Assembly: GCA_013816135.1 (NCBI GenBank)
Contig: JACDEV010000002.1
Coordinates: 33,120 to 97,119 of the forward strand
DNA: 64,000 nt
Direction of reading: 5' to 3'
Origin: Patescibacteria group bacterium
GTDB lineage: Bacteria; Patescibacteriota; Minisyncoccia; Phycocordibacterales; DATDWN01
Position 1 is the first letter of the stretch. Every line of letters starts with the position of its first letter. Under the pieces are notes generated by a model that was not told where the DNA came from, did not search any database, and worked only from the letters and a program-made list of their open reading frames with translations. Position numbers and translations under genes: made by a program. Shown here one piece after another: positions 25,006 through 47,372 of the stretch.

Positions 25006-25064
25006 ATTTATTTAAACTCGTTGAAACAAAGCAATTTATTCAGATTTTTAGCCTTAAATTAAGG

Positions 25065-25093
25065 TTGACAATAGAATAAATTTAAAGTATAAT
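25065..25093 (+). promoter_or_regulatory. consensus sigma70 promoter TTGACA-N17-TATAAT
   Basis: -35 at 25065-25070, -10 at 25088-25093. The ~45 nt upstream are a near-duplicate of the sequence upstream of the 24658 promoter. Confidence 0.65.
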
Positions 25094-25129
25094 CCGAAAA
25101 GACGAAACGGTGAACAAGTACCGAAAGGA

Positions 25130-25555
25130 GTGGTCGTGAGGAGATTTGTATTCTATGTAAGGGTCCTATGGGCACCAGTATCAGTGGTTGCCCTAATTGT
25201 ATTGGGCCTCGCTATTCTGGATGGTCCAACTACGATTACGGTCGCGGAACGGACAGACATTGCCCAGCCTGGCGACATCGATATGGCTGTGGCAAATCAA
25301 CAGTTCGCCTCAGCCAAGCCATCCGACATCGTTTTCCTGGACTCATACGGTTACCTAGATTTCCAGGAAACCGAGAATGAAACGGGTTTGTATATTCTCC
25401 GCTCCGGCTCATATACAATCCGGATCGGTCCAAAAGCAGTAACCCAGTACCATGCGAAAATAATCAAGAATGGTACAGCGGAGTACGACGCGATTCGTGA
25501 TCTGGAACAAAAACGAAGAAATATCTCCGATCCAGGACCAGTCGTCTGGTTCTAA
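25130..25555 (+). CDS. small secreted/membrane-anchored hypothetical protein, GC-rich (~50% GC)
   Basis: SD AGGAG followed by a GTG start. N-terminal hydrophobic segment VLWAPVSVVALIVLGLAIL. Strong terminator follows. Confidence 0.45.
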   Translation: MVVRRFVFYVRVLWAPVSVVALIVLGLAILDGPTTITVAERTDIAQPGDIDMAVANQQFASAKPSDIVFLDSYGYLDFQETENETGLYILRSGSYTIRIGPKAVTQYHAKIIKNGTAEYDAIRDLEQKRRNISDPGPVVWF

Positions 25556-25580
25556 CCCCGTCACAGAAACCCGTACAGAA

Positions 25581-25617
25581 ATGTACGAACTCTGTACGGG
25601 GTTTTTGTATTCTAAAA
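25581..25617 (+). terminator. rho-independent terminator homologous to the one at 24969-25005
   Basis: CCGTACAG-AAATGTACGAACT-CTGTACGG followed by GG TTTTT. Same GGGGTTTTTGTATT tail as the previous terminator. Confidence 0.65.
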
Positions 25618-25776
25618 ATATCGTTGACTCATAAGTTTTCTGAGACTTTCACAGGCTGACGAGCCGAGAATAGCAAAATCCTAGCAAGGATTTATGTGTG
25701 TTGAAGAAAACTTATGAGGAGAAAGAGATTGTGGATTTGAGTTGAATTTTTGGCCATTTTTGGCTAGACTGTCTAG

Positions 25777-31900: not shown

Positions 31901-32057
31901 TATCAACTGGGTGATGTAATGCCCATTCCTTACCCGGTAAAACTTTTATATTTCCTTCTGCTGAACTTTCAGCCAAAAAAATCATCTCACGGCTGAATTT
32001 TGAATTCTTTACATGCTGTGGCTGAAACATTCCACCGAATTTATCTAATCCTTTCAT
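28905..32057 (-). CDS. multidomain protein: transglutaminase-like Cys-peptidase core, K/E/D-rich coiled-coil linker, C-terminal vWA (MIDAS) domain
   Basis: TGase-like core CYSANTKFIAMVRKAGVPARLIIG...GHAWSEIWDGNSWRRFDAT (C/H/D triad). ~250 aa of charged low-complexity coiled coil. vWA MIDAS motif ILVDVSGSMAG plus GGTNM and GDGGDT. Confidence 0.8.
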   Translation of the reverse strand: MKGLDKFGGMFQPQHVKNSKFSREMIFLAESSAEGNIKVLPGKEWALHHPVDKASRAEKLQGLLDGNLSAEEVAHDITPDALIYNAEDIEKEGLEKVSARIRDTTAFVAHYDYPRFAKFVESMRGKDIPLEELDNLYSHITKSRIQKKVYDSYGYTGQKQIINTLENEAKDTIEKINDFSRSEKVLKALKMNWLSEEMKLVSSEERDAAISQLSGDERALFENLNNSYNEYVQNGNEEGYKKLTETVRDELKTIQKETQSNDSSDSMKELEKELEEFKQEAVPPGAPEDPAIPEDDQDEYHTPPPAQGNESKEKMEATPIFEIEPALGGYYISGRKSYYDKETKTWSKKKQLTLYNESSKNLDHSTISGILDKGLKSLPIPNSYALDISSLTYEGGDKPEISRDQNGCFYIKANAPVKFSISFQKEENAFINSPIIEDSTSLYKGTLSAKTEVVISRMMGNSIQKAEQARQHILANHFYPGGGDLQMAQALQYKLRKDSTGDNYIQNLDSSEYLECYSANTKFIAMVRKAGVPARLIIGHKVQGSKEGKSSITQSTGHAWSEIWDGNSWRRFDATPNPKPEDKKDKKDKDKEKNNESSEEAEDGGVEGPQDKESKKGDKEGKKSKKPGKEKGEGKSESPTDQMPDATDKEMEQSESELQEAKDTMDKMGEQKKRLDENMEKAEKFKELADLKKEIEEAEIFDDMKKELQDKIEAKEDQMKDKIREGVDKMVEDGFMDEKKRDEILKELDEKKLEDLDRVQKEVEQENKLYSEYEDIREEVSILVDKWFKYFAERLPRQEEVGLDEDSLTRQGSFNRRAVMRTRNLIFGMVKNPREIRPSIKPRFMASILVDVSGSMAGEKLKSARKLLVFYSELFSRISDAFGYIRFSIDTFSDSVTEIKGFQQDYDSPQRYDFGDGTNSTIKVRLMKGLNANGGTNMLEGIKKSATELNKQVEEFPDYASAFYFVGDGGDTCGNGKNISNFLQVNESERGFGEHMYSAILLGNESQRQELASIFGDEHTNVVPDFDELIEKSMDKFDQDLEEYLRTKTK

Positions 32058-32061
32058 ATTA

Positions 32062-35000
32062 TTATGCCCTTACACGCTTTTTTGAAGTCCAAGTATTCAT
32101 TACTGTTCGAATTCTCTCCTGATCTTCTTTTTTATCTATATGAGTCAAGAAATACTTATCTAAGAGATTCCTAGCTACAGTTTCAGGATTTGCAGTAGCT
32201 TTCTCTTCTGGAGTCATCTTGCTAAGGGAGTATGCACAGCGTCGCAATTCACGACTAGTGATTGGCTGTGTAACAGGCAAAGCATTTCTTGATTCTCTAG
32301 TTTTTTCAAAAACTTTAATAAAGTCTGCTCTTAAATTATTGGAAAATTGGACTAATGCCAAAGAAGCATCCAAATCGAACTTTTGTGTACTTGTAGGGTC
32401 TTGAGCACCGTTCTCTATGCCATTTACATATCTATCCCAAAGTTTTACAAATTCGTTGCGCTCTAAGCTAGCCTCATATGTCAGATCTTCCAGCGAATCT
32501 ATACCTCTTGCCAACCGTAAAGCTTCCGATGCGTCATAAGGCAAATTCGGATTATTATCACCAGTATCTGGATTTCGTTTTAAAGGCGGATAATCTATTT
32601 CCATTTCTACCATACGGCTTCTGGTAGCAAGCTGAGGATCAAATGTTCCAGGATATCCAGGATTCATTGAACCGATCAAAATAACACTAGGTAATGCTTT
32701 TATTGTTTTTCCTGAGCTAGTCTTCAAAGTCAGTGAGCGCTTTTCATCCATAAGAGAATGTAGGAAGATCTGAGCCTGTTCCGGCATAGCATTCAATTCA
32801 TTAAAATAAACTATAGCCCCAGGAGTAGTAATTCCATTAAGTACGGCAGATGGCACCTTCACAGTTTGTGAAGCCCCATCCTTTGATTCGAGCATAACAT
32901 CTTCAGATAATTCAAATTCGGTGGTCCATTTTGAACAATCAATTCCAAAATACGGACGATGTGTTAAAGAAGAAAACATCTTTATCCTAACATCTTTTCC
33001 AGTGCCGGCATGGCCTTTCAAGTTTAAAAGATCTGCTTGCAAATCTAATTGCATCTTCAAAGCTTCTGCCATTTTTTCCAAATCCTTTTCTGTTTGGCTG
33101 TCTATAACCCAATGACTCTGCCATTCAGGAACATAACCTTTGCCGTTAGTATATCCTACTTCAGGCTCAGTTTTTACCTCGTCTATTCGTCTCAAAATTG
33201 AAATATTATGTTCCGCAGCAAAAGCTGAATATTCTTTTAATTTTTCTTTATATTCGTTTTGCCATACAACATCTAGTTCTGGTATTCTTTCACTTTTTTT
33301 TGGCCTTCGAGAATAAGTTTCCTTCAAAGCTTCTCTTTTCTTCTCAAATTCTGTCCTCAAAGGAGATTTTTCTCCTTGTGACCAGTCTGTATATTCTTTC
33401 CTTATATTTTTAAATTCTTTTGCACTCAAATATGATGGTGGAATAGACTCTCCTCGATAAGAAAGCAGTCCTAGTCTCCATTCATTTTCTTGTTCCCAAC
33501 CTTCATATAAACGAACATGTTCAACCTTGCCTGTAGACGTTTTAATTGATAGTGAAATATCGCCATAAATATCTGTAGCTTTGACACCTGGGCCGTGACT
33601 TCTCTCATCTTCTTCGAAAGTGACATCTACTTTACGTTCTACTTTTTCCTTTACTTTGGCTTCCCATTTTGGGAAAGGAGTTTTTCCAAACAAAATCATT
33701 TGCTGTCCTGTTTCTGCTACTTTTGTCATTGCCCCTCTTTCAATTTCGGTCAATGCATTGGAAATTCTTACTTTTAAACCTTTTTCTAATTCTTTTGCAA
33801 CATCAGGATTATCATTTGAAAGGCCCTTTATTTCTATTTCCAAAGTTTTTTTAGCTTCACTAGAAGAAAGGTACTGTTCAGCATCTTTTCTGCTAGTAAA
33901 TCCTTTTGTTCGCAATCTATCAATTAAACCGTCTGCATCTTGAGAAAGTACATCTACAGTCGTTCCTATTCTTTCAGAAGCTTTTTCTCTGACTTTTGCA
34001 TATTCTAATTTAAACTTTTCTTCATTTGTCGCTGCAATATGTTGTAATTCATTTCGAGCAGAGATTATGGCTTTGTATGCTTCATCAGCTTCCAGAGGAA
34101 CATCTTTTAGTAAGGAACCTAGTCTGGATTTTAATTGTGGATATCGGAATTCCAACCAATCATCCATCTGTGATTTGCTGGTAAAAGCTTCAATATCTAC
34201 CCTCGTTCTTTCTATCATTCCTGCTATATCTTTTGTGATCTCTCCACCACGTTGCCGAAAAAGTTCCAAAGACTTTTGTTCAAGTTCAGTCGATAATTCG
34301 CTCACTTCTTCACGTAAGTTATTTTCAAGAAGAGCTTCGACTGCCCTGACCTTGGTCATCATAGCTCTGGCTTCCCCCACAGAAGAAATAGTGAGTCCGC
34401 TGATAAGATTTGCTCGCACTGAAGTTAAAGCCTCTTGTGCAACTTTGAGTGCAAATTCTTTTTCTTTAGAGACAATAGGTTCTTCTAAACCTTCTATAAT
34501 GTAATCAATTTCATTTTGTTTAAGACCTTGTCTTACAAGAACACCTTTGAGTTTTTCAAATCCTTGCCTAACACGAAGTGCATCTTCTTCAGTTGTCATC
34601 TTCGAAATCACCTCACTAATCTGTTCTTTATATTTTATACGCAATGGATCCAGGTGTTCCAAGCTCTCTCCAGTTTTGGCAACCTTCTTTAAAGCTTCTG
34701 CTTCAAAAAGATCTCCAATAGAAACACCTTCTGCGATTTTGGCCACACGTCTTTTCTCCAGCTCTTCTTCAAAATCAGCAAAATTAGGTTCCAATATGAC
34801 CAAGAAACCATCTTTATTGATAGCTCTGATTCTTCCAGTAGAATCAAAATTAACCTGAGTTAGTCCTGGAACTCTCTTAACTTCTTCGAGCGTATCTTTA
34901 GTAATTACAACTAGATCTTCTTTTGAATAAAAAAAGAAAAAATTACCTGTAGGATCTATCTGAAGATTACTTATACTTTCATATTTTTTTGGGAATAGAA

Positions 35001-35949
35001 CTGAAACTGGACTCCATATAGAGGTATCTTGACTCATATCTAATTTAAATACTTCACTAGGATTATTATTTCTACAATAAAATATTGTATTAGGATTTTT
35101 CGGATCCTTTACAATATTATTCTTTATTCCCGAAATATTATCAAAAAAGAGTGGCTTTTCATTTATTTTATTCTTATCTACAATATTTATACCAATATCA
35201 GTAATTAAAACTCCATATTTCTCATGTGAAATATCGCAATATTCCCCGGGCAATCCTTCAAAAGTTTCAATGTATTTCTGCAGGTCTTCTGGAACAACTT
35301 CAGAGTTAGGGTCTATTCTTTTCCAGTTTCGAGGAGCTTGAATAACTCCTGCGGCATTCTCAGTAATGTAGGATATAAATAGATTTTTACCTTTATTACC
35401 AAAAACAATATATTTACCACCATTAAGGATGTGAGCTGAAGGTTCACTAAGTAGAAGGTGTTCTTTTTGATGAAAGTTAGCTATTGGAAAACACCAGTCA
35501 TTACTATGTCTTTTTATAATATCTCCTCCTTTTTTATGTAAAAATGGTGGTAAATCCTTTAAATTGAGTACCATTGAATGTACTTGACTATCATTTCCTA
35601 AGTGAGTTTTTCTTTTGTCTTGAACTATTTTTTTTATATCAATGTCTACATTGGTTTTATTCAATGAATCACTGAAATCCTTAACTTCTTCACCTTTATC
35701 ATCATAAATAGTTATTTTATCTGAATTTTCCAAAACGACTATTGTATAGTCATTCCATGGTAAGATATTTTCAATTTTTTGTGATCTTCCACCTTCTTTA
35801 TTGATCGGTTTTTCAGATCTTCTTATCTCCTTAAGCTCTAGTTCTGCTAATGCCTCATTATCCTTTGGAGCTGATGATTGTTGTGGAACTGGAACATCAC
35901 TATGGGCCGGAATTCCTGACATTGCTCCTTCACGATTAAAAATAGACAT
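32062..35949 (-). CDS. giant (1295 aa) protein with a C-terminal MoxR-like/AAA_5-type AAA+ ATPase domain
   Basis: Walker A LKGHAGTGKD (~33000), Walker B IVYFNELNAM, sensor-1/Arg-finger region ILIGSMNPGYPGTFDPQLATRSRM. The N-terminal ~900 aa are unassigned (possible beta-rich repeats then long helical region). 2 nt separate it from the downstream vWA gene. Confidence 0.75.
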   Translation of the reverse strand: MSIFNREGAMSGIPAHSDVPVPQQSSAPKDNEALAELELKEIRRSEKPINKEGGRSQKIENILPWNDYTIVVLENSDKITIYDDKGEEVKDFSDSLNKTNVDIDIKKIVQDKRKTHLGNDSQVHSMVLNLKDLPPFLHKKGGDIIKRHSNDWCFPIANFHQKEHLLLSEPSAHILNGGKYIVFGNKGKNLFISYITENAAGVIQAPRNWKRIDPNSEVVPEDLQKYIETFEGLPGEYCDISHEKYGVLITDIGINIVDKNKINEKPLFFDNISGIKNNIVKDPKNPNTIFYCRNNNPSEVFKLDMSQDTSIWSPVSVLFPKKYESISNLQIDPTGNFFFFYSKEDLVVITKDTLEEVKRVPGLTQVNFDSTGRIRAINKDGFLVILEPNFADFEEELEKRRVAKIAEGVSIGDLFEAEALKKVAKTGESLEHLDPLRIKYKEQISEVISKMTTEEDALRVRQGFEKLKGVLVRQGLKQNEIDYIIEGLEEPIVSKEKEFALKVAQEALTSVRANLISGLTISSVGEARAMMTKVRAVEALLENNLREEVSELSTELEQKSLELFRQRGGEITKDIAGMIERTRVDIEAFTSKSQMDDWLEFRYPQLKSRLGSLLKDVPLEADEAYKAIISARNELQHIAATNEEKFKLEYAKVREKASERIGTTVDVLSQDADGLIDRLRTKGFTSRKDAEQYLSSSEAKKTLEIEIKGLSNDNPDVAKELEKGLKVRISNALTEIERGAMTKVAETGQQMILFGKTPFPKWEAKVKEKVERKVDVTFEEDERSHGPGVKATDIYGDISLSIKTSTGKVEHVRLYEGWEQENEWRLGLLSYRGESIPPSYLSAKEFKNIRKEYTDWSQGEKSPLRTEFEKKREALKETYSRRPKKSERIPELDVVWQNEYKEKLKEYSAFAAEHNISILRRIDEVKTEPEVGYTNGKGYVPEWQSHWVIDSQTEKDLEKMAEALKMQLDLQADLLNLKGHAGTGKDVRIKMFSSLTHRPYFGIDCSKWTTEFELSEDVMLESKDGASQTVKVPSAVLNGITTPGAIVYFNELNAMPEQAQIFLHSLMDEKRSLTLKTSSGKTIKALPSVILIGSMNPGYPGTFDPQLATRSRMVEMEIDYPPLKRNPDTGDNNPNLPYDASEALRLARGIDSLEDLTYEASLERNEFVKLWDRYVNGIENGAQDPTSTQKFDLDASLALVQFSNNLRADFIKVFEKTRESRNALPVTQPITSRELRRCAYSLSKMTPEEKATANPETVARNLLDKYFLTHIDKKEDQERIRTVMNTWTSKKRVRA

Positions 35950-36372: not shown

Positions 36373-36448
36373 TGGAGCCACCTGTCAGGTTTGAACTGAC
36401 GACCTGCCGTTTACAAAACGGCTGCTCTACCAACTGAGCTAAGGTGGC
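36373..36448 (-). tRNA. tRNA-Thr (anticodon UGU), CCA encoded
   Basis: Reverse complement GCCACCTTAGCTCAGTTGGTAGAGCAGCCGTTTTGTAAACGGCAGGTCGTCAGTTCAAACCTGACAGGTGGCTCCA folds as a cloverleaf. 7-bp acceptor stem, anticodon loop TTTGTAA, T-arm GTCAG/CTGAC. Confidence 0.85.
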
Positions 36449-38390: not shown

Positions 38391-38861
38391 TTAATCGCCT
38401 GGATAGAAAACTCTTGTACCACTTTGAGAGATCAAGTATGGTGCCCACGCAACCAAACCCCACCAGGGTTTTGATGGACACCACATGACGGTAATGGGGC
38501 AAGAATCAATGAAGAAGAGATTGACCACGTCACCTTTAGTAACAAGCAATCCCTCTTCACCATTCCATTGCAAAGTGATGAGTTCTTCAATGACCGCTAG
38601 AGCTTGCGACTTATCAAAAACATGTTGAGTTGGCAACATTTTTCTGATCTCGTAATCCCTCATATCCTGAGTGATCTGGGTACTGTTGAGTTTAACAATT
38701 GTCCCCATCTCTGTTGGATGCGTATTCGCAACGGCTAGTTGAAGAAAAGAGTCTCGCACATAGAGTCCTTCTCGAGTGCGATAGAACCTAGATGGGTCCC
38801 GATATTGACTTATCGTAAGTTCTGATGAAATAGCTGGAGTCAAACTTGTAATTGCTGTCAT
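38391..38861 (-). CDS. hypothetical protein
   Basis: 156-aa ORF followed by a strong terminator. Confidence 0.4.
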   Translation of the reverse strand: MTAITSLTPAISSELTISQYRDPSRFYRTREGLYVRDSFLQLAVANTHPTEMGTIVKLNSTQITQDMRDYEIRKMLPTQHVFDKSQALAVIEELITLQWNGEEGLLVTKGDVVNLFFIDSCPITVMWCPSKPWWGLVAWAPYLISQSGTRVFYPGD

Positions 38862-39065
38862 AACTTCACCTCTATCTATACCATAACATCTTAAACTAAT
38901 TTGTCAAACGTTTTTCGAATAATGCTAAATTAAAATCTCGTTGGCTCATAATCTTTTTGGAGGCTCAGAAGCGCGACGGCGCGAGGATTCGAGAGATTTT
39001 TCAGTAAGAAAAATCGCGTACTCCAAAAAGGTTGTGAGTCAAGAAGAGATTTTATAAATACAAAA

Positions 39066-40037
39066 TTACTCACTATCATCAACCACTCCTTGCCCATCGT
39101 AATTCGCCATTGCCTCCAAAATAGGCTCAATTCCCCCAGCTTGGATCTTTTCGATATTGTGCCATGACTGCTTGATACGGTGGTCAGTAATTCTATCTTG
39201 TAAAATATTATAAGTACGAATTTTCTCGGATCTGTCCGCAGTACCGATTTGAGACTTTCTGTCGGCTGAATATTTTGCCGCTTCTTCCTCTTCTTTTTTT
39301 GCTTCAAGTTTGGCAATAAGTATGCTCATAGCCATTTCTTTGTTTTTGAGCTGATTTCTCTGGGAAGTAGAGCGAACATCAATTCCTGTAGGTATATGAA
39401 TGATACGTACCGCAGTTTCCACCTTGTTCACATTCTGACCTCCAGCGCCTCCAGATCTCGAAGTCTCAATTTCAAGATCAGATGGCTTTATCTCAATACT
39501 AGTCTTTTTTCTAACGGGTAGAACAGCAACTGTAGCAGTAGAGGTATGAACTCTGCCCATCTTCTCGGTTGCTGGGATTCTCTGAACTCTATGAACTCCA
39601 GTTTCAAATCGTAAATTCTTATAAACATCTTTACCTCTTATCTCGAAAGAAGCTTCTTTGTAACCTCCAACAGCACTGTGTGATTCGTTCACTACATGAG
39701 CAACCCAGCCTTGGTTTTTGGCATAAGTACAATACATATTAGCTAGTTCTTCGGCAAAAAGAGAAGCTTCTTCTCCTCCTGCTCCTGCTCGAACTTCTAA
39801 GATAACTTCGTTTGGAAATTCTTCTATCTTTTCATCCTCCTTTAAAATCTCATCCATCTGGTTAAATAGTGCTTCTTTTTGTTCACGAAGAGACTTCAAT
39901 TCTGACTCCGCTAATTCAGCAAGATTTGGATCATGCTTGATCATATCTTCTGTAGCGACTTCTTCATCTACAAGTTTATTATAGAGTTCAGCTAAGTAAG
40001 AGGTCTTCTGATTTTGTTGAAATCTTTCTATGTCCAT
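39066..40037 (-). CDS. prfA: peptide chain release factor 1
   Basis: GGQ motif ([11 protein letters not shown]) and the PAT tripeptide ([14 protein letters not shown]) that is diagnostic of RF1. Confidence 0.85.
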
Positions 40038-40164
40038 TGTGTTAAGTATAGCAATTAAGAACCAAGAAAATAGCCCTGGATGCTAGGCGCGGAAAGATTT
40101 TCGAGTGAGATGTACATTGAGTACATTGAACGAGAAAATCTGCATCGCAACAACGCAGACAGGG

Positions 40165-40437
40165 TTATTTTGTTGTGTTCTTACCGGCTTTAGCTTTGGC
40201 GACTCTCGCTTTGAACTTCTCCGCTCTTCCAGCAGTATCGAGTGACTTCTCATTTCCAGTATAAAAAGGATGTGATGCACTAGAAACTTCAAGTCGAAAC
40301 AATGGATATTCTTTACCATCTTTAGCTTTGCCTTGTTCAGTTGTAACTACTGTAGACGAAATAACAAACTCAGCTGAATTTGAGTTATCAATAAATAGTA
40401 CTTTCCTATAGTTCTTTGGATGTATGTCTTTTTTCAT
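40165..40437 (-). CDS. rpmE: 50S ribosomal protein L31 (type B, non-zinc)
   Basis: MKKDIHPKNYRKVLF...HPFYTG. Confidence 0.85.
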   Translation of the reverse strand: MKKDIHPKNYRKVLFIDNSNSAEFVISSTVVTTEQGKAKDGKEYPLFRLEVSSASHPFYTGNEKSLDTAGRAEKFKARVAKAKAGKNTTK

Positions 40438-40547
40438 GTTTTTATTGCTCCACTACTCTATCAAAATAGGCCTATTTTTGCAAGATTTGCAATATAAAGA
40501 TTTCTATGTAGTATTTTCAGGAGAACAACGTAATTGAAGAGGTTAAT

Positions 40548-40925
40548 ATGGTTTTCAATCCGAAGACAGATCAGTGGATGAAAAGAGTCCAAGCAGAAGA
40601 AATTGAACGAATTCGAAAGGAAATTCGTAAACTTCCTCGAAACATAAGCTCATTGATTGAAAAAGGTGAAGACACAATAGATGAGCATTTCAAATTCAGA
40701 GATAAAGAAAAGGAAACTGGTAGATATACAAGTGAGGACGTTATTGGTTTGAATGTCTTTCATCTTGGAGAAAACATTCCTGGGGATGTTTTGAAATATC
40801 TAATGATGCTTTACACTGCCTCTGGCTTTTATCATGTTGGCTTTATGTGCGATCAATTCTCGACTGAAAACAGTGCGACTCGAGTGAAATACCCGAACTC
40901 AATCACATTAAGAATTTCTCGCTAA
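40548..40925 (+). CDS. hypothetical protein
   Basis: 125-aa ORF. Confidence 0.3.
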   Translation: MVFNPKTDQWMKRVQAEEIERIRKEIRKLPRNISSLIEKGEDTIDEHFKFRDKEKETGRYTSEDVIGLNVFHLGENIPGDVLKYLMMLYTASGFYHVGFMCDQFSTENSATRVKYPNSITLRISR

Positions 40926-40986
40926 AAACCCATCACCCTGGGACAGAATTCCTGTCATATCATGTGTATGGGTTTTCTGTTTTAAG

Positions 40987-42390
40987 CTAAAAATTTAAAG
41001 GGTCGATCATAGTGGTCTGGATGCGCTCTGCAATACTCATCACACTATTTCCATACGAAATATTCGGCGGTTGTCGATTTGAAGAACAAACTGACCCCGA
41101 ATAATACTTACACGCGGCATTTCTTTCAGCTGTATATGAACCTGAAACTGCACCTAGTTCTTTCATATAAATAGCAGTTGCCATAAATGCGTCACGAGCA
41201 TTCCATGGATTAGCATTATCCCCAGAAATTCCTATCATTGAACCTACCTTATCTTTAAAAAGTTCCCAAGTTGATGGAATAAATTGTGATGGACCCATAC
41301 CTCCTCCATATCCTCGACTGGAACTATAGGTTGCTCCGAGCGGACATGATATAGGTGTGGTCTTCCAATCTTTTCCTAGTCGTGCCGTTATGGTTTGAAA
41401 CGGAACTGTATCCCTCGGTGCCTTCATTACCTTCTCAAAAATCGTGCCAGAATTTTTACCAACACCATCTCCGCTTGTAATATCTGTTAGTAAACATGAA
41501 CCTACATTTTGACCAAGGTTGCTTTCTTGGGTCAAAATAGCCAATAGGAAAGCTGTACGAGTTCCTGTCTTTTCAGCTGCTTGTTGGGCATATTGTAATG
41601 CTTCTCCGAAAGAAATAGCTCCTGTATCTCGCAACTTAAATAAAGCTGCCTTAATTTCATTTGCTCTCTTCTGCTTTTCAGCTAGGACTTGTTCGTAGGT
41701 TTTCTCTTGGGTTTTGTTAACAGTTATTAAATACTGTTTTTGTTTTTCATTAATTTCCACCTGTTTCTTCTGAGCCTCAACTGCCATTTTGGTGTCTATT
41801 TCTTTTATTTTAGCGGTGTCTAGAGAAGCTTTTTCTTTTTCTGTCACTGCTTTTGTATCACGAATCTGGTTAAAAAGATCCTGAAGAGATTTCTTTATCA
41901 TTCGGAATGAATCGATATCTGAGAAAAAATCTGAAATATTTTTGTTACCCAAAACAACTTCCATTAGTGAAAATTGATCAATCTGATTTGTCTTCCGAAG
42001 AAGTTGTGAAAGGGATTCATGCCCCTTTTCTATTTTTGCCTCAAGCTGATTTATTTTTACAGTTTTTTTATTAATATCTACACCCAACTGTTGAATGTTT
42101 ATATTTCTCTGTTTTATTAGGGCCTGAGCCTGTTTAATCTTCGCGTTCAGTATAGCTGCATCTTGTTGAAGAGATTTAGTATTGGCTTTTGTGCTGTTTA
42201 ATATAGATTGCCACTTAAGAATATCCTGTTCTGTTTGAGCAAGTTCATCTCTCCAAATGGCTTCTTGCTCTTCTTGAGTTATTGCAAAAACCTTTTCAAA
42301 TTTGAAAAAAGTGACTGAAAATAGACATAGGAATACAAAAAAACCAATCAAAATAGACTTTCTGGATAATTGAAAGGACATTGTATGCAT
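40987..42390 (-). CDS. membrane-anchored coiled-coil protein with C-terminal lytic transglycosylase (SLT/GH23-like) domain
   Basis: N-terminal TM helix and ~250 aa of coiled coil. The C-terminus has ILTQESNLGQ (catalytic Glu context) and GGMGPSQFIPSTW. Confidence 0.7.
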   Translation of the reverse strand: MHTMSFQLSRKSILIGFFVFLCLFSVTFFKFEKVFAITQEEQEAIWRDELAQTEQDILKWQSILNSTKANTKSLQQDAAILNAKIKQAQALIKQRNINIQQLGVDINKKTVKINQLEAKIEKGHESLSQLLRKTNQIDQFSLMEVVLGNKNISDFFSDIDSFRMIKKSLQDLFNQIRDTKAVTEKEKASLDTAKIKEIDTKMAVEAQKKQVEINEKQKQYLITVNKTQEKTYEQVLAEKQKRANEIKAALFKLRDTGAISFGEALQYAQQAAEKTGTRTAFLLAILTQESNLGQNVGSCLLTDITSGDGVGKNSGTIFEKVMKAPRDTVPFQTITARLGKDWKTTPISCPLGATYSSSRGYGGGMGPSQFIPSTWELFKDKVGSMIGISGDNANPWNARDAFMATAIYMKELGAVSGSYTAERNAACKYYSGSVCSSNRQPPNISYGNSVMSIAERIQTTMIDPLNF

Positions 42391-42553
42391 TCTATTTATT
42401 ATACCTTCAATTCACACTTATTTAAAGACGAAATAACCTATAGAATATTACCTCTTATAGCAAAATTAGCGAAAAGAACTTAGATGCTAGGTGCAAAAGT
42501 TGCAACCTGCGTGCAGTGGCAAGCAACACAGATGAGTTCGTTTCGCTGATTTT

Positions 42554-43192
42554 TTAGGCTTCTGGGATGACTTCCTCCTCCTTCTTACCCTTCTTTTCTA
42601 CTTCAATTGTAGACAAGTCTACTGGTGTAGTATCTTCTACTTCTTCTTCCTTAGGAGCTGCAGCAGAAGCTACAACCTGATCAGGAAGCTCGATTAAAGT
42701 TACACCTGTTGGAAGTTTGATTTCAGAAGCAATAATTACACTGTCGAAAGTTTCAAGAGTTGAAATATCAACCTTAATGTCATGAGGAATATGTTGTGGA
42801 TCTGCGGAAATTTTTAATTCGTGTAGGGCTTTTACCAAGCTTCCTCCTAAGTCTTTAACTGCAGGAGCAACGCCTATGAAATCCAATGGTACAGAAACTT
42901 CGAGTTTCTTTCCTTTTTCGAATACGTAGAAATCAGCATGTCGTGGGATATCAGAAACTGGATCAAGGTCAACAGCTTTGATAAGTGCATCAACTGGACC
43001 TGTAGCACTCTGAAGAGTTACAACTCCTGATTCACCTACTGCATGCCAAACTTTAATAAATTCCTTTCGTATTAGAGTAATTGGAGTAGCGTTTGTCTTC
43101 TTTCCGTAAAAAACTGCAGGCATTTTGCCTTCTTTCCTGAGGAGATCTAGATTTTCTTTATTATCTCGTAGAGCAGCATCTAATGTAGTCAT
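42554..43192 (-). CDS. rplY: 50S ribosomal protein L25 / general stress protein Ctc
   Basis: L25 N-domain (RKEGKMPAVFYGK) with the Ctc-type C-terminal extension. Confidence 0.85.
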   Translation of the reverse strand: MTTLDAALRDNKENLDLLRKEGKMPAVFYGKKTNATPITLIRKEFIKVWHAVGESGVVTLQSATGPVDALIKAVDLDPVSDIPRHADFYVFEKGKKLEVSVPLDFIGVAPAVKDLGGSLVKALHELKISADPQHIPHDIKVDISTLETFDSVIIASEIKLPTGVTLIELPDQVVASAAAPKEEEVEDTTPVDLSTIEVEKKGKKEEEVIPEA

Positions 43193-43407
43193 TCGGCCAG
43201 TATATAGAAAAGGTGATAAAAAATCAACCTCCGATCACAATTACAAAATCTCTTTCTCATCATATCTTTTTTTGAGCCACATAAAAGCCTACTGGCTTTT
43301 TGTTCTGTCTCGGCTACCCGCCTGCGAATGCTCCAAAAAAAATATTACTCGACGAGATTTTGTACACTAGCTCAAATCTAAGTTTCGAAGTTACTTATTG
43401 TTATCTG

Positions 43408-44274
43408 TTATATGTTATTGAAAAAGCGGAGTTTTTTTTCGACTACATCTTGAACAGCTTTAATTGAAGTTTTGAGATATTTGTAAGGAGCTACTTCGTC
43501 TGGGTTTTCGTTTAATCCGAGCATCAAGCCTTGCTTAAAGGCTACTCTGATCTCTGTATTTATATGTACGATTGAAACACCGTTTGCGATCGCCTGTTTA
43601 AAGTCATCTTCTGAGTTACCTGAACCACCATGGAGAACTAACGGAATACCGACTGCCTCTGATATTGCTTTCGTCCTTTCAATGTTTAATTTCGGATCAA
43701 TGCCTCCACGTAGCATGCCATGGAAGTTTCCAATGGCAGGAGCGAGCATGTCGACTCCAGTTTGTTCCACAAACTCTTTAGCCTTTACAGGATCAGTAAG
43801 AGAACTCTCATCAAGAAGAACTCCGTCTGGTATAGCATCCAAGACCTTGGAGGATGTCCCTATGAAACCAAGTTCGGCTTCGACAAGAATATCGGGATTT
43901 ACACTTCGGGCGTACTCTACACATTGTTTTGTGATTTTTACATTTTCTTCAAATGAAAGTTTTGCTCCGTCGAAGATGACCGAGTCAAAACCAGCATCAA
44001 TTGCTTCTTTTACCCTTTCAAATGAATATGTATGATCAGCATTTAGAAAAATAGGATAATTATATTGTTCACGAATGCTTTTTACCAAGGCAGTCACTTG
44101 AGGAACCCCTATATAGTCTCTCTCACCTTCTGATGCGCCAATAATAACAGGTAAGTTTAAAGATTGTGCTGCTCGAAAGATACCCCACAAAGCCTCAAGA
44201 TTAGAAATATTGAAATGACCGACCGCAACTTTATTTTCTTTAGCTTCTTTTACGCATTCTCTTAGTGTTTTCAT
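43408..44274 (-). CDS. fba: class II fructose-bisphosphate aldolase family
   Basis: VAVGHFNISNLE, LVLHGGSG and GNFHG motifs. Confidence 0.85.
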   Translation of the reverse strand: MKTLRECVKEAKENKVAVGHFNISNLEALWGIFRAAQSLNLPVIIGASEGERDYIGVPQVTALVKSIREQYNYPIFLNADHTYSFERVKEAIDAGFDSVIFDGAKLSFEENVKITKQCVEYARSVNPDILVEAELGFIGTSSKVLDAIPDGVLLDESSLTDPVKAKEFVEQTGVDMLAPAIGNFHGMLRGGIDPKLNIERTKAISEAVGIPLVLHGGSGNSEDDFKQAIANGVSIVHINTEIRVAFKQGLMLGLNENPDEVAPYKYLKTSIKAVQDVVEKKLRFFNNI

Positions 44275-44348
44275 TGGATAATTGTAACATAAATTTTTTT
44301 AGGTAAAAATGACTATGATTAGAGCTGATATTTTGATATAATTTGTAA

Positions 44349-45350
44349 ATGTTACAAACAGATATTCTTTCTATTGGAGATATAACAACAGATGCTTTCA
44401 TAAAAATCAGCAACGCAGAAGTTCATTGTGATATCGATAAACAAAACTGTAAGCTCTGTGTTAACTTCGGCGACAAGATTCCTTACGACTCCGTAACTCT
44501 GGTTAAAGCTGTAGGAAACAGCGCAAATGCTGCAGTTTCTGCAGCCAGACTTGGACTGAATTCGGCTTTGCTTGCATATGTTGGAGATGATGAAAACGGA
44601 AAAGACGATATTGAAATTTTGAAAAAAAATAATGTCGACACTAAATATGTCAGAGTAGAAGAAGGAAAGAAAACAAACTACCACTATGTCCTATGGTATG
44701 ACGTTGATAGGACAATATTAGTTAAACATGAAAGTTTTAGTTATGAATTAGGAGATATTGAACCACCAAAATGGATCTATTTAAGTTCGCTCGGGGACAA
44801 CACTCTAGATTTTCATATACAAATCGCAGACTATATTGAAAAAAATCCTAACATTAAGCTTGCTTTCCAACCTGGAACATTCCAAATTAAAATTGGGAAA
44901 GAAGCTCTAAAAAAAATCTACAGCCAGACTGAAATATTTTTTTGTAATGTCGAGGAAGCTCAGCTTATTTTAAGTGAATCTTCACGAGCTATTCCTGTTC
45001 TTGTAAAAGGTATTGCTTCCTTGGGTCCAAAAACTGTAGTTATTACTGATGGTTTCGCTGGAGCTTATGCGTGTGATACAAAAAACGATGCAGAGACAAT
45101 ATGGTTTATGCCTGTTTATCCTCATACTCCTATCGAAAGAACAGGAGCTGGTGATGCTTTTGCTTCAACTATAGTTTCTGCAATCATTCTAGGTAAAACA
45201 CTCCAAGACGCTTTGACTTGGGCACCTATAAACTCCATGTCAGTTGTACAAAAAGTCGGAGCACAAGAAGGACTACTTTCTAAAACGGAGATTGAAAACT
45301 ATCTAGCAAAAGCTCCTGAGGATTACAAACCTTCAAAACTAAATTCCTAA
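44349..45350 (+). CDS. PfkB-family carbohydrate kinase (possible 6-phosphofructokinase/ribokinase-like)
   Basis: C-terminal GAGDAFAS anion-hole motif. Ribokinase-fold blocks. Confidence 0.8.
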   Translation: MLQTDILSIGDITTDAFIKISNAEVHCDIDKQNCKLCVNFGDKIPYDSVTLVKAVGNSANAAVSAARLGLNSALLAYVGDDENGKDDIEILKKNNVDTKYVRVEEGKKTNYHYVLWYDVDRTILVKHESFSYELGDIEPPKWIYLSSLGDNTLDFHIQIADYIEKNPNIKLAFQPGTFQIKIGKEALKKIYSQTEIFFCNVEEAQLILSESSRAIPVLVKGIASLGPKTVVITDGFAGAYACDTKNDAETIWFMPVYPHTPIERTGAGDAFASTIVSAIILGKTLQDALTWAPINSMSVVQKVGAQEGLLSKTEIENYLAKAPEDYKPSKLNS

Positions 45351-45461
45351 AAGTTTTTAAAATTGCTTTAGATGCTAGGCGTGTGAGATTTTATGAGTGA
45401 GCCGTACATTTAGTACGGTGAAAGAATAAAATTGAAACACAACAACGCAGATGAAGTGTTT

Positions 45462-46463
45462 TTAAGGACTTTTCCTGCCGATTACTTTTTTGGCGGCTAA
45501 GATTATATGCGACTGATTCATTCCATAATGACCAATAAGCTCATCTTGTGTTCCTGATTGTCCAAACTTATCTCTGACTCCGATAAATTCGATTGGTACT
45601 GGAAAATTTTCTGCTAAGGTTTCAGCAATAAGTGACCCCATACCCCCCATAATCTGATGCTCTTCAACAGTGACAATACATCCCGTGGTCCGTGCAAGAT
45701 TTACTACCGATTCAACATCCAAAGGCTTAATGGTTGCGAGATTCATTACCTTGGCGGATATACCTTCTAATTTCAAAGCTTCAGCGGCAAGTAAAGCTCG
45801 ATGGACCAAGGCACCAGTGGCAATTATTCCAACATCTGCATGAACTTCCTCTTCTCCATAAAATAGAACGGCTCTGCCAAGCTCAAAGGGAGTTTCATCT
45901 GTAGTAATAACTGCAGTTTTTTCGCGGGCTAATCGAATATAAACAGGATGACCTATTTCAGCCACTGCCAATGTTGCTTTCCTAGCTTCTATGTAATCAC
46001 ATGGAGAAACTACCACCATCTTTGGAATAACTCTTGTAAGTGCGATGTCTTCAATTGCTTGATGAGTTCCCCCATCAGGGCCTACAGAAACTCCAGCGTG
46101 TGAACCCGCAATGATAACAGCTCTATTGTTGTAGCAAATTGTAGTTCTGATCTGTTCCCAATTTCTACCAGGAGAAAACATTGCATAACTGGAGATGAAA
46201 GGAATTTTTCCCATGGCAGCCATACCAGAAGCAACGGAAGCTAAGTTTTGTTCTGCCACTCCAATTTCCACAAACCTGTCAGGAAATTTATCTCGAAATA
46301 GATTCATCTTAGTTGACTCAGTCAGATCTGCGCATAACCCGACAACCTGAGAATTATTTTCACCTGCTAAAACTAATCCCTCTCCAAAACCATTGCGAAT
46401 AGGAACTTTCTCAACATCTTTTTTAAAAATCTTGGGATTAAGTTTTAAGGATTTGTTGATCAT
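45462..46463 (-). CDS. transketolase, C-terminal subunit
   Basis: Pyrimidine-binding and C-terminal domains of a split transketolase. Confidence 0.85.
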   Translation of the reverse strand: MINKSLKLNPKIFKKDVEKVPIRNGFGEGLVLAGENNSQVVGLCADLTESTKMNLFRDKFPDRFVEIGVAEQNLASVASGMAAMGKIPFISSYAMFSPGRNWEQIRTTICYNNRAVIIAGSHAGVSVGPDGGTHQAIEDIALTRVIPKMVVVSPCDYIEARKATLAVAEIGHPVYIRLAREKTAVITTDETPFELGRAVLFYGEEEVHADVGIIATGALVHRALLAAEALKLEGISAKVMNLATIKPLDVESVVNLARTTGCIVTVEEHQIMGGMGSLIAETLAENFPVPIEFIGVRDKFGQSGTQDELIGHYGMNQSHIILAAKKVIGRKSP

Positions 46464-46472: not shown

Positions 46473-47372
46473 TTATTCGTGTTCGGATGTTATCTGTCCC
46501 CCAAGACTACGTAATTCTCTCAAAGCAATTTCTGCTTGTTTTTCTTTCGGTGGTTCACCGGCTATTTCTGTTCCAGGAGGATTACCATGCCATTTATAAT
46601 CTTTTTCCATAAATGAAACTCCTTTGCCAGGAATTGTATTGGCAATGATTACACTCGGGCCATCAAAAACCGCCTGAGCTCTTCCAATAGCTTCCACTAT
46701 ATCCGAAAAATTATGACCATCTATTTCTTCTACATGAAAACCAAAACTTTCGAACTTATGTGATAGCGGAGACAAAGGCATTACTTCATCTGTATATCCG
46801 TCGATTTGAATATTATTTCTATCAACAATAGCGATAAGATTTCCTAACTTTTCTTTAGAAGCCAGCATCATAGCTTCCCAATTCTGACCTTCATCGAGTT
46901 CTCCATCCCCTAACATGCAATAGAAAAATCTATCTGATGTTCTACCAAAGTCCATTCTATCAGCGATAGCCATACCCACAGCCTGAGAAAGACCAGAACC
47001 AAGAGGACCTGAGCTTGTCTCGAGCATTGGCAAGAATTCCCTGTGTGGATGGCCTTGGAGTCTGGATTTATATTTTCTCAAAGTCAAAAGTTCTTTCACA
47101 GGAAAATATCCACAATGAGCCATTGTGGCATACAAGACTGGAGCGATGTGCCCATTGGAAAGTATTAGTCGATCACGTGAAGGCCAAGTTGGGACCTTTG
47201 GATCATGTCTAAGAATAAAAAAATAAAGCGTGGCAAATATGTCAGCCATACCCAACGGTCCAGCAGAATGTCCAGATCCTGCAGAGACTAGCATCTCTAT
47301 GATCGATATCCTTATTTCTTTAGCTTTTTCTTCAAGGAACTCGATTTTTTCGGGAGTAAGATTATTTAACAT
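46473..47372 (-). CDS. transketolase, N-terminal (TPP-binding) subunit
   Basis: GHSAGPLGMADIFATLYF and GDGELDEG TPP-binding motifs. Confidence 0.85.
   Translation of the reverse strand: MLNNLTPEKIEFLEEKAKEIRISIIEMLVSAGSGHSAGPLGMADIFATLYFFILRHDPKVPTWPSRDRLILSNGHIAPVLYATMAHCGYFPVKELLTLRKYKSRLQGHPHREFLPMLETSSGPLGSGLSQAVGMAIADRMDFGRTSDRFFYCMLGDGELDEGQNWEAMMLASKEKLGNLIAIVDRNNIQIDGYTDEVMPLSPLSHKFESFGFHVEEIDGHNFSDIVEAIGRAQAVFDGPSVIIANTIPGKGVSFMEKDYKWHGNPPGTEIAGEPPKEKQAEIALRELRSLGGQITSEHE

Follow-up and report, generated by a model that had tools for sequence, protein, structure and literature searches.

A probable ERIC/MITE-type palindromic repeat family at gene 3' ends in a Patescibacteria genome

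In the window, by which we mean the whole 64,000-nt stretch of DNA analyzed, the minus-strand genes rpmE, tktC, rplY and prfA are each followed by an intergenic segment with a hairpin stem. The first-pass annotation had proposed that these four segments share the same sequence blocks. This proved correct for the segments after rpmE and tktC (copies B and D), extended only to the two ends of the segment after rplY (copy C), and did not hold for the one after prfA (segment A). Copy B (40067-40170, minus strand; core 40078-40160) lies between rpmE (40165-40437) and prfA (39066-40037), both minus-strand genes assigned by Pfam, and its outer stem, AAAATAGCCCTG/CAGGGTTATTTT, encloses the rpmE stop codon (40165-40167). 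Copy B is listed here by the strand of its host transcript; its better fold is on the plus strand (-45.4 kcal/mol, z -9.3, vs -32.1 for the minus strand). Copy D (45355-45466, minus strand; core 45370-45452) is located between two convergent genes, the C-half of tkt (tktC, 45462-46463, minus strand) and a pfkB kinase gene (44349-45350, plus strand). The tktC stop codon TAA (45462-45464), 10 nt from the core, falls within the outer stem TTAAAA/TTTTAA, and the fold energies are -30.5 for the plus and -17.8 for the minus strand. On the minus strand both copies carry TCTGCGTTGTT, a GTAC-N5-GTAC hairpin, CTCACTC, AAAATCT and CCTAGCATC, and they are 73% identical over 93 nt (family D4). As initially described, the GTAC hairpin is extended to a longer stem in both (ATGTAC/GTACAT and CCGTAC/GTACGG). 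Covariance models (CMs) detected both with E about 1e-24: copy B scored 92.5 bits with model R1 (E 2.5e-24) and 76.7 bits with model R2, and copy D 91.5 and 78.5 bits, respectively. We refer to these elements and their relatives as family 1.

Copy C (42461-42553, minus strand) follows rplY (42554-43192, minus strand), and the end of its outer stem at 42553 adjoins the rplY stop codon (42554-42556). The 5' block GATGCTAGG (42483-42491) and the 3' block AGCAACACAGA (42522-42532) are retained, both inside an outer stem of roughly 20 bp in the fold of 42391-42553. Its 12-mer TTAGATGCTAGG is identical in copy D, the local alignment of C with D gave a z of 5.2, and model R2 scored C at 12.2 bits in the right orientation. 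In place of the P3-P5 interior there are about 30 nt with no significant fold (z about 0). As the GTAC hairpin and CTCACTC are absent, segment C is an internally truncated family-1 copy within a long outer stem.

Segment A (38941-39042, minus strand), after prfA, has a 22-bp outer stem, and 24 nt lie between the end of its hairpin and the prfA stop codon. It folds on the plus strand with -47 kcal/mol (z -6.4), and its interior on that strand reads GCTCAGAAGCGCGACGGCGCGAGGATTCGAGAGATTTTTCAGTAAGAAAAATCGCGTA. We rejected it as a member of family 1: neither covariance models nor nhmmer gave a family-1 match, and its alignments with family 1 gave z values no higher than 1.9, as did those of control spacers. 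The motif AAGCGCGACGGCGCGAG...ATTTTCAG.AGAAAAT is common to segment A and two copies in a Parcubacteria locus (L029, 4870-4882 and 9767-9779, plus strand), which differ from one another by compensatory arm changes. Segment A is a real hairpin from a different repeat family, family 2, analogous to family 1. The closeness to stop codons noted in the first-pass annotation was confirmed for all four segments.

At least six related members had been counted in 64 kb; the number was right and the composition was not, with segment A out. The CMs detected six copies in addition to the truncated C, with E-values from 1e-10 to 1e-24, five with their cores on the plus strand (B, D, E1, E2 and F) and one on the minus strand (G); the host genes of E1, E2, F and G were assigned by Pfam. 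Copy E1 (641-768, minus strand; core 662-747; R1, 78.3 bits) follows a LexA-like S24 peptidase gene (766-1344, minus strand); it has TA at both ends, and the stop codon TAA consists of TA and the first A of the arm. Copy E2 (61062-61187, minus strand; core 61083-61167; R1, 90.5 bits) follows an RRM-protein gene (61187-61561, minus strand). It is 82 to 87% identical to E1, arms included, with three compensatory arm changes. A separate canonical terminator is present downstream of E2 on the minus strand (about 61016-61041), and thus termination cannot be the general function of family 1. Copy F (14225-14340, minus strand; core 14242-14323; R1, 80.0 bits) lies directly after rpmF/L32 (14341-14568, minus strand) and upstream of nusB-NUDIX, with an apical hairpin ACGTAT/ATACGT in place of GTAC. 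The degenerate copy G (57290-57404, minus strand; core 57306-57387) is in the opposite orientation, between nrdA (57446-60241) and nrdB (56249-57274), both on the minus strand. It scored 46.4 bits with R1 (E 7.7e-11) and 35.9 bits with R2 on the minus strand, which is its well-folding strand and that of its host genes.

Every family-1 copy is an imperfect hairpin of 100-130 nt. Conservation is highest in an internal core rather than at the termini, which is unusual for MITEs of DDE transposases; on the well-folding strand the core reads GA-TGC-NA-GGCG ... GAGTGAG-xxGTAC-N5-GTACxx ... CAAC-NNC-GCA-GA. The outer arms vary by subfamily yet remain complementary. In a metagenome alignment of 118 CM matches, 88.6% of cells were paired, compared with at most 48% in slid controls, and both-side changes occurred in 587 cells vs 193 ± 11 in shuffles. 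The well-folding strand, which is the plus strand in most window copies, has G.U pairs and tandem G.A mismatches (G.U/U.G, 122, vs A.C/C.A, 57). In most copies it is the strand antisense to the host gene that folds better, by 6-13 kcal/mol, which argues against simple selection on a hairpin in the host mRNA. TA or YTAG is often found at both ends, and TAG or TAA is made at the junction.

Family-1 copies are intergenic, with one end against the stop codon of the upstream gene. In the window, five copies and the truncated C lie behind the stop codons of minus-strand genes, all in a single orientation, and copy G is inverted. Among the metagenome matches listed, 68 of the 94 evaluable copies had an open reading frame (ORF) of at least 150 codons ending no more than 80 nt upstream, and 36 of these 68 ORFs ended exactly 20-22 nt from the core, the peak of the distances. 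In the other orientation such an ORF was present for 31 of 99 of the listed matches, at scattered distances, and about 72% of the evaluable copies among those listed were in one orientation. These data support the earlier description of a dispersed, orientation-biased 3'-end family. TA is ubiquitous in this AT-rich genome, so that TA targeting alone does not account for the contact of every copy with a stop codon. The proposal of a mark for a translation regulon had to be abandoned, as the hosts are unrelated: in the window they also include the LexA-like peptidase, transketolase and the nrdA/nrdB spacer, and elsewhere thiolases, ABC ATPases, SDRs, LepA and RNase Y. Near-identical copies were found behind unrelated genes.

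Family 1 also occurs outside this genome. With a pattern of 25 fixed bases, we found at least 120 additional metagenome stretches, and the family covers CPR, Proteobacteria, high-GC soil bacteria and a viral contig. Copies were detected in a Paceibacteria metagenome-assembled genome (L026; 57.4 bits), on a Comamonas plasmid (42.9 bits) and on a phage-like viral contig (L094; 57.5 bits); the L026 copy, like copy B, directly follows rpmE. The distribution is patchy: only 1 of 38 other Patescibacteria loci had a copy, and GC-rich contigs had as many as four per 6 kb. Tandem arrays and nested insertions exist. Pfam scans of window ORFs of about 80 amino acids or more revealed no transposase. RAYT, IS200-like and integrase genes were neither present in the window nor enriched near copies, and no protein family was enriched among 973 neighbor ORFs. 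We found no pair of filled and empty sites; the mobility of family 1 is an inference.

We propose, with a probability of about 0.68, that copies B and D, the truncated C and the four other window copies belong to a widespread ERIC/MITE-type family of small, non-coding and non-autonomous palindromic repeats that are co-transcribed with their hosts, forming a hairpin at the 3' end. Family 1 would then be an element of a familiar kind in a host where it was not expected, a CPR bacterium with a tiny genome. The elements would represent present or past non-autonomous mobile DNA, spreading in trans and landing on TA. As the arm starts with a purine, an element landing in the TA of a stop codon would restore TAA or TAG and be tolerated. 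Once inserted, the elements would be transcribed within the host mRNA as a 3' untranslated or intercistronic part, and the hairpin might influence 3'-end formation and mRNA decay, as with ERIC (RNase E) and Correia (RNase III). The window encodes RNase III and an RNB-domain exoribonuclease of the RNase II/R type. By analogy with ERIC and Correia, the terminator or 3'-processing role suggested in the first-pass annotation is plausible.

It is unlikely, in our estimation, that family 1 is instead a single-stranded DNA element of the REPIN or attC type, whose AGGCG strand would fold and be recognized by a dedicated enzyme, for example a HUH/Y1 transposase or a tyrosine recombinase. On this view the protein would recognize the conserved core, including its tandem G.A mismatches, and the orientation bias would come from the direction of replication, not of transcription. 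Such an element would account for the folding asymmetry between strands, consistent in every lineage, ERIC included, for the excess of G.U pairs over A.C mismatches and for a core conserved above the termini. It would also fit the CAGATG repeat at the P1/P2 junction, which is direct and not inverted, and the BIME-like nesting of hairpins in hairpins. Also in its favor, the folding strand in the window is the plus strand, whose GC skew is negative; however, this skew would put the folding strand on the leading-strand template, not on the strand exposed for IS200/IS605-type mobilization. Moreover, no mobility gene of the kinds named above turned up in the window or in excess near copies, a conserved GTAG tag is absent, and the AAC/GTT pairing of the R-box, the defining feature of attC, is missing too, as AAC lies opposite GGC in an internal loop. 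Less probable still is a cis-acting RNA element selected by the host rather than mobile DNA, namely an elaborate intrinsic terminator working in both directions, or a stabilizer or processing site of the 3' end, located right behind stop codons for modulation by the terminating ribosome. The start of the hairpin at or over the stop codon, the covarying base pairs, the two RNases encoded in the window and the A-tract and T-tract flanking the outer stem in B, in L026 and in the GC-rich subfamily are compatible with this explanation. So are plain terminators at the same rpmE site in related Parcubacteria, promoter-like sites after A and C, before the next gene, and the detection of a 75-nt sX9 RNA in Xanthomonas (PMC3300014). 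Nevertheless, E2 needs its own terminator, E1 is without a U-tract, and the mRNA-sense strand is the poorer folder. The patchy taxonomy, the near-identical copies behind unrelated genes, the tandem arrays and nested insertions, and the inverted copy in the nrdA-nrdB spacer also speak against host selection.

The far better folding of the plus strand, the U-rich tract after the plus-strand hairpin of copy B and the filing of part of the family as an sRNA in Rfam might point to independent sRNA genes antisense to host gene 3' ends. We consider this very improbable, since in the region of the four initial segments none of the plus-strand copies has a promoter-like site upstream, Rfam sX9 matches the opposite (TCTGCG) strand, and dozens to hundreds of copies next to unrelated genes, in both orientations, are unlike sRNA genes. 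As for chance similarity in AT-rich intergenic DNA, it applies only to the likeness of segment A to family 1, which was that of control spacers. Lone short blocks are not rare, GATGCTAGG occurring 18 times with one mismatch vs 8.5 expected. Nevertheless, the CM E-values of the six copies, the independent matches of the 25-base pattern and the covariation controls refute chance for B, C and D and leave it a negligible probability for the family.

The ERIC/MITE-type reading can be set against known repeats. Rfam RF02228 (sX9) matched the 3' half of Xanthomonas-type copies, from the apical GTAC hairpin to the outer arm, with 36.1 bits (E 9e-5), below the gathering threshold of 44; these copies also satisfied the family-1 pattern and CM. 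sX9, which lies on the TCTGCG strand, is confined to half of the element, has been described as an sRNA of unknown function and not as a repeat, and gave no match to the window copies even at E up to 10. It is among the most abundant annotated "sRNAs" and highly multi-copy (PMC9029176). Correia/NEMIS, a Neisseria MITE with no known transposase, is a 104-157 bp palindromic repeat with TA duplication whose co-transcribed hairpins are cut by RNase III. By eye, it has GGCGTTGCC, CGCCTTG, GTAC-N5-GTAC and A5/T5 in the arms in common with family 1, but motif order and spacing differ, and real N. gonorrhoeae copies (L218) went undetected by the family-1 CM and reached an E of only about 2-3 with nhmmer; this is a likeness by eye, not homology. 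REPINs/REP-RAYT and BIMEs resemble family 1 in that they are hairpin doublets outside genes that evolve by compensatory changes, lie behind genes in very high copy number, nest in mosaics and require strand-specific folding. In contrast, family 1 forms one long hairpin instead of a pair of short REPs, has no GTAG tag, save coincidentally in Xanthomonas-type arms, and no RAYT gene was found. The Yersinia 168-bp repeat YPAL/RU-2 inserts at or beside regions of dyad symmetry and shares a transcript with the genes upstream of it (PMC2229807), a habit that fits the family-1 cores nested in terminator-like outer stems (B and L026). The arm CAGACTGCTGACAAACCCCGA looks similar to CAGGCTGCTGAAAAAGGCCCA, and the published RU-2 sequence (PMC2759123) is devoid of family-1 core motifs.

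Like family 1, ERIC (IRU, 127 bp; RU-1) is an imperfect palindrome of about 125 nt, multi-copy and intergenic. De Gregorio et al. are said to have found in 2005 that ERIC copies overlapping or adjoining stop codons are preferentially in one orientation. ERIC has TIRs and is co-transcribed (PMC2229807, PMC3184786), carries TA at each terminus (PMC3184786), and its orientation decides its effect on the upstream mRNA via RNase E (PMC2229807). It differs from family 1 in its apex (CTTAC-ATAAG-TAAG rather than GTAC-N5-GTAC) and in its hosts, having been described only from Enterobacteriaceae and Vibrio, whereas family 1 occurs in Paceibacteria (CPR), high-GC soil bacteria, Comamonas and a viral contig. 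Unlike in ERIC, the outer arms of family 1 are not conserved between subfamilies. nhmmer gave no match between ERIC and family 1, and the best pairwise score merely equaled the maximum of 100 shuffles. In a targeted search, an E. coli ERIC copy aligned with the family model over its full length and colinearly (14.3 bits, E 0.004), with the blocks TGCAGGAAGGCG, GTGAGTGA, apical hairpin, GTGAGCGA and AACGCAGCA in the same order as in family 1. This copy abuts the ybhI stop codon in the family-1 orientation and shows the same folding asymmetry between strands (-50.5 vs -36.1 kcal/mol). On these alignments, a homology of family 1 with ERIC is weakly suggested.

The intergenic feature flagged in the first-pass annotation is real and non-random and is of a known kind, an ERIC-like palindromic repeat, newly seen here in a CPR genome and belonging to a family much wider than catalogued. 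Four segments, A (38950-39065), B (40070-40164), C (42481-42553) and D (45369-45452), had been proposed to form one subfamily of shared blocks. All of these blocks were present, on the minus strand, in B and D, which are 73% identical over 93 nt, but not in A and C. We built a covariance model, R1, from aligned B, D and three similar stretches of the window (662-747, 61083-61167 and the newly found 14242-14323), with their common hairpin written as the structure. With filters off, R1 detected exactly five copies on the plus strand of the window at 78-92 bits, B (92.5 bits) and D (91.5 bits) giving significant full-length matches to the core, from stem P2 to stem P5. The full elements around the other three cores are denoted E1 (641-768), E2 (61062-61187) and F (14225-14340). 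A sixth, degenerate copy was found on the minus strand (57306-57387, 46 bits, E 8e-11), and beyond these six nothing in the window scored above 15 bits.

Segment C was detected by neither R1 nor nhmmer, and a second, broader model of the family, R2, gave 12.2 bits in the correct orientation (E = 1 for the window as a whole). The two core ends are kept in C, namely TTAGATGCTAGG, which is identical to D, and AGCAACACAGA (alignment z 5.2 against D), and they lie inside an outer stem of ~20 bp whose end at 42553 adjoins the rplY stop codon. C is thus an internally truncated copy. Segment A had no covariance-model or nhmmer match, and its z of at most 1.9 was like that of control spacers; it was therefore rejected as a member. 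The proposed subfamily thus stands for B and D in full and for C as a truncated form, whereas A is a foreign hairpin. In total, the window contains six copies of this family (family 1) and one truncated copy, each element being 100-130 nt long. The degenerate copy, G (57290-57404, minus strand), lies in the nrdA-nrdB spacer in the opposite orientation and is the sole window copy whose well-folding strand is the mRNA strand.

Segment A forms a strong hairpin in its own right (-47 kcal/mol, z -6.4). Its interior, AAGCGCGACGGCGCGAG...AGAGATTTTTCAGTAAGAAAAAT, was found twice more in locus L029 of Parcubacteria GW2011_GWA1_56_13, and the arms of the copies show compensatory changes between them, indicating that A belongs to a second family of hairpin repeats. 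The core of this second family reads AAGCGCGACGGCGCGAG...AGAG.ATTTTCAG.AGAAAAT, and its copies span 38941-39042 of the window, after prfA, and 4825-4950 and 9737-9835 of L029, where one of the two occupies the rpmE-prfA spacer in sense orientation. A viral scan with a 17-mer of this second family returned 18 matches, all of them chance occurrences in GC-rich coding DNA.

The window has a GC content of 36.9% and comes from a member of the Patescibacteria (CPR), within the Paceibacteria/Parcubacteria group. The best relatives of its RF1 are found in an uncultured MAG (76% identity) and a Taylorbacteria MAG (64%), followed by other Parcubacteria. Window-identical DNA is also recorded in GCA_020064125.1 and in a Logan assembly. 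The DNA of two comparison loci from the same organism (L001 and L002) does not differ from that of the window (100% identity) and thus brings no comparative signal. Pfam confirmed the gene names given in the first-pass annotation, with prfA (39066-40037), rpmE (40165-40437), rplY (42554-43192), a class-II aldolase gene (43408-44274) and a split transketolase (45462-46463 and 46473-47372) on the minus strand, and a pfkB kinase gene (44349-45350) on the plus strand. The Pfam scan of the window ORFs also returned an RNase III (12528-13220) and, at 7461-9401, an exoribonuclease with an RNB domain, of the RNase II/R type. A tRNA-Thr (UGU) gene (36373-36448, minus strand) was the sole RNA gene identified by Rfam and ARAGORN in the window. 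The Rfam scan at gathering threshold yielded nothing besides it, and a scan of 38800-45600 at E up to 10 yielded no match on the elements.

Other features of the window were recorded along the way. A promoter-like block with TTGACA occurs as a direct repeat at 24622-24664 and 25029-25071 (86% identical), and a terminator-like block at 24986-25024 and 25589-25627 (79% identical). These pairs bracket two small ORFs (24741-24938 and 25130-25555), neither with a Pfam match, and the whole (24622-25627) looks like a duplicated small expression unit. The 221-nt spacer at 25556-25776, just upstream of pheS (25777-26943, plus strand), is strongly structured (-75 kcal/mol on the plus strand) and had no match in Rfam; it could be an unrecognised leader, e.g., a divergent T-box-like element. 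Three very large minus-strand ORFs, within 28905-35949 and 50531-53317, encode proteins of 1050 aa (transglutaminase core), 1295 aa (AAA_5) and 928 aa (AAA_5 and a weak nSTAND3). Such ORFs are unusual in a CPR genome of small size, and a link with defence or the cell surface is possible.

A full family-1 copy is a single long imperfect hairpin. Read inwards along the strand that folds better, a variable outer stem P1 is followed by a symmetric GA/GA mismatch and P2 (UGC/GCA), then by an asymmetric loop that is conserved (NA-G-GC opposite AA-C-NNN), P3, P4 of 8-12 bp, a loop in which GAGUGAG faces UGAACGA and which holds more tandem G.A, and lastly an apical hairpin xxGUAC-N5-GUACxx. The strand containing AGGCG (A strand) folded better than its complement with TCTGCG (T strand) by 6-13 kcal/mol in every copy tested, with values of -45.4 vs -32.1 kcal/mol for B, -30.5 vs -17.8 for D, -72 vs -65.8 for the copy of locus L026, from a Paceibacteria MAG, and -53.4 vs -42.5 for that of locus L114. 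G.U and U.G pairs numbered 122, against 57 A.C and C.A mismatches, chiefly at the base of P5. Six of the seven window copies have their A strand on the plus strand, where it is antisense to the host genes and has a negative GC skew. Some GC-rich metagenome copies (L166 2811-2996, L184 3241-3444, L179 5910-6083, L124 1826-2028 and L155 511-657) carry extra small hairpin modules within the usual arms, including CCCGCTGCCGCCGGGGCAGCGGG and GGGTACCCACCGAAGGTGGGTCC, a mosaic organisation reminiscent of BIMEs.

To follow the family beyond the window, R1 was run on RF1-centred loci of 80 species, 1.3 Mb in total, where it detected one copy. This copy, in L026, lies directly after the rpmE stop codon and ahead of prfA, is oriented like B and has an outer stem that takes in the last five rpmE codons. 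R2 run on 38 Patescibacteria loci (~550 kb) also found the L026 copy and no further one. The distribution is thus patchy, dense in the source genome and absent from most relatives. A loose pattern returned one true copy among viral contigs, in a contig of 59% GC. A tighter one that fixes 25 bases (TCTGCGNNGTT..GTACNNNNNGTAC..CGCCTNGCA) matched at least 120 metagenomic stretches (37% to 73% GC), which originate from soil, peat, sediment and groundwater. Up to four copies per 6 kb were present in some GC-rich contigs. No match was obtained by BLAST with the GC-rich consensus against plasmids or with the viral copy against phages, and text searches of the literature for k-mers of the element found nothing.

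Alignment of 118 copies with R1 gave standard pairs in 88.6% of pair cells, vs 68% in shuffles and at most 48% with slid partners, the fit of the alignment to the model itself favouring the structure. Changes on both sides occurred in 21 of 26 pairs, and doubly changed cells numbered 587 vs 193 +/- 11 in shuffles. Given the slid controls and the independent subfamilies, the covariation is convincing. Copy number also varies between loci: the thiolase locus L098 (3650-4040) has three Xanthomonas-type copies in tandem, repeated every 132 nt after the thiolase gene, vs one copy at each of the orthologous loci L109, L141 and L188, indicating that it changes by tandem duplication and dispersal.

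The proposed adjacency of the elements to stop codons was borne out. In B, C, D, E1, E2 and F, the stop codon lies within P1 or directly against it. With every copy set on the T strand, crude gene calls placed the end of a co-directional gene upstream 68 times and a gene start 30 times. We then applied a stricter test, requiring an ORF of at least 150 codons ending at most 80 nt away, which 68 of 94 evaluable copies passed in the T orientation vs 31 of 99, at scattered distances, in the A orientation. Thirty-six of the T-orientation ORFs end 20-22 nt from the core, i.e., their stop codon abuts a 21-nt arm, and another 13 end at 10 nt, with a TGA inside the arm and C-termini ...LAGC. The proteins encoded upstream are mutually unrelated (thiolases, ABC ATPases, short-chain dehydrogenases, LepA, RNase Y and RND pumps). 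In the window, the hosts are rpmE, rplY, tktC, rpmF and genes for an RRM protein and a LexA-like peptidase, and the inverted copy G lies between nrdA and nrdB. Since hosts such as the LexA-like peptidase, tktC, nrdA/nrdB and, elsewhere, thiolases and ABC ATPases extend beyond translation, the earlier suggestion of a translation-specific regulon mark is refuted.

The rpmE-prfA spacer harbors a family-1 element in the window and in L026, and none in 25 other Patescibacteria, species too distant to define an empty site. In six of the comparison loci (L007, L012, L013, L015, L020 and L063), this spacer contains unrelated long hairpins of 60-130 nt, and other Patescibacteria have short canonical terminators there. 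Hairpin elements seem to have landed in this spacer repeatedly.

Like MITEs, family-1 elements are short (<300 bp), non-coding, multi-copy and dispersed. Complementarity of the two arms is kept in every copy; the arm sequence is conserved inside subfamilies (E1 and E2; the GC-rich CAGGCTGCTGAAAAAGG arm) and differs among B, D, F and the L114 and L026 copies. The layout of the commonest GC-rich subfamily is YTAG, CAGGCTGCTGAAAAAGGCCCA, core, TCTGGACCTTTTTGAGCAGCCTG, about 12 nt, TTTTTCAGCAGCCTG and YTAG. Both ends are TA or YTAG in many copies, including direct TTAG...TTAG pairs, which may reflect a target-site duplication, although CTAG and TA are themselves palindromic; E1 is flanked by TA...TA. 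At the junction, TAG or TAA arises where TA meets the purine that opens the arm. These features suggest a non-autonomous mobile element that would land on TA and be tolerated in a stop codon, since an arm opening with a purine would restore TAA or TAG. Carried along in the mRNA of its host gene, it would form a 3' hairpin that, by analogy, could influence termination and decay. No transposase domain of a cognate autonomous IS was detected in Pfam scans of window ORFs of at least about 80 aa, and clustering of 973 neighbouring ORFs revealed no enriched gene family near the copies.

A terminator or 3'-processing role, as envisaged in the first-pass annotation, may be considered by analogy. U-rich tails are found in B and in the L026 copy, and the presence of promoter-like sites after A and C and of plain terminators after rpmE in related species fits a position at transcript ends. 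However, a terminator scan flagged only sub-hairpins of B, E1 has no U-tract, and a separate canonical terminator follows E2, so that the element is not simply a terminator. At odds with the mobile-element reading, the antisense strand folds better and the core is more conserved than the termini; moreover, every copy touches a stop codon, even in an AT-rich genome. These three features keep alive a model in which the element acts as single-stranded DNA, as REPINs and attC sites do. They also keep alive a broader proposal, namely that these elements, ERIC, sX9 and the metagenomic subfamilies form one ancient superfamily whose strand-specific core with tandem G.A is a site for a cross-phylum protein partner, mobilising or processing them from CPR to Proteobacteria and phages. 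We regard this proposal as rather unlikely. If true, it would account for three observations: ERIC has been assigned no transposase, conservation is higher in the core than at the termini, and the strand that folds well is antisense to host genes. The 35-year-old question of how ERIC-type elements spread would then become testable by phylogenetic profiling. To our knowledge, no transposase has been assigned to ERIC, nor an established means of spreading to ERIC and Correia elements.

Palindromic repeats of small size, among them ERIC, Correia and REP, influence both how operons are expressed and how plastic genomes are. Here, a streamlined CPR genome of ~37% GC carries them densely behind ribosomal-protein and central-metabolism genes, and a covarying core common to distant phyla and a viral contig extends the range of this kind of element. 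Most long structured spacers of the window are thereby explained without new regulators. The covariance model and search pattern can be used for annotation, to avoid mistaking repeats for sRNA genes as with sX9, and the comparative data set is large enough for a search for a protein partner.

Among known elements, sX9 (RF02228) matched the 3' half of the T strand of Xanthomonas-type metagenome copies (36.1 bits, E 9e-5; gathering score 44), at a locus with three tandem copies of 132-nt period after a thiolase gene, and did not match the window copies at E up to 10. sX9 was described as a 75-nt RNA of unknown function (PMC3300014), and its annotations rank among the commonest for 'sRNAs' of bacterial genomes (PMC9029176), as would be expected of a repeat. 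BLAST with the Xanthomonas-type tandem unit identified a copy on a Comamonas plasmid (R2 42.9 bits), one on a Yersinia plasmid and an element in the nuoL-nuoM spacer of E. coli. The latter (L237/L240; L240 2501-2671) is an unannotated element of ~130 nt with 86% identity over 50 nt to the sX9-type core; it is present at 99% identity or more in 724 of 5426 complete E. coli genomes, with more distant matches in 771 others.

Other candidates were set aside. The R''/R' boxes of integron attC sites (RYYYAAC/GTTRRRY) are unpaired in family 1, where AAC faces GGC in an internal loop and the hosts are housekeeping genes. Neither the core nor most arms have the conserved GTAG of REP/REPIN-RAYT systems, and no Y1 transposase was found among the scanned window ORFs or the 973 neighbouring ORFs. 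Several short motifs are common by eye to Correia elements, but homology to Correia/NEMIS was rejected, the covariance model finding nothing at five N. gonorrhoeae copies (L218) and nhmmer giving E ~2-3.

The closest likeness is to ERIC. R2 aligned with the E. coli ERIC of the ybhI-ybhJ spacer full-length and colinearly at 14.3 bits (E 0.07 in 15 kb, 0.004 for the locus alone). nhmmer returned no match between ERIC and family 1, and the best pairwise score, 30, equalled the shuffle maximum. The two may plausibly be homologous. ERIC elements have TIRs, carry TA at both termini and are co-transcribed with flanking genes, and their effect on upstream mRNA via RNase E is orientation dependent and ribosome sensitive (PMC2229807, PMC3184786). 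The E. coli copy shows a strand asymmetry like that of family 1 (-50.5 vs -36.1 kcal/mol) and is likewise set against an upstream stop codon. Stop-codon-adjacent ERIC copies in a preferred orientation were reportedly described by De Gregorio et al. in 2005. Family 1 thus resembles ERIC, an imperfect palindrome of ~127 bp, in being intergenic, adjacent to stop codons and in a preferred orientation, with TA termini.
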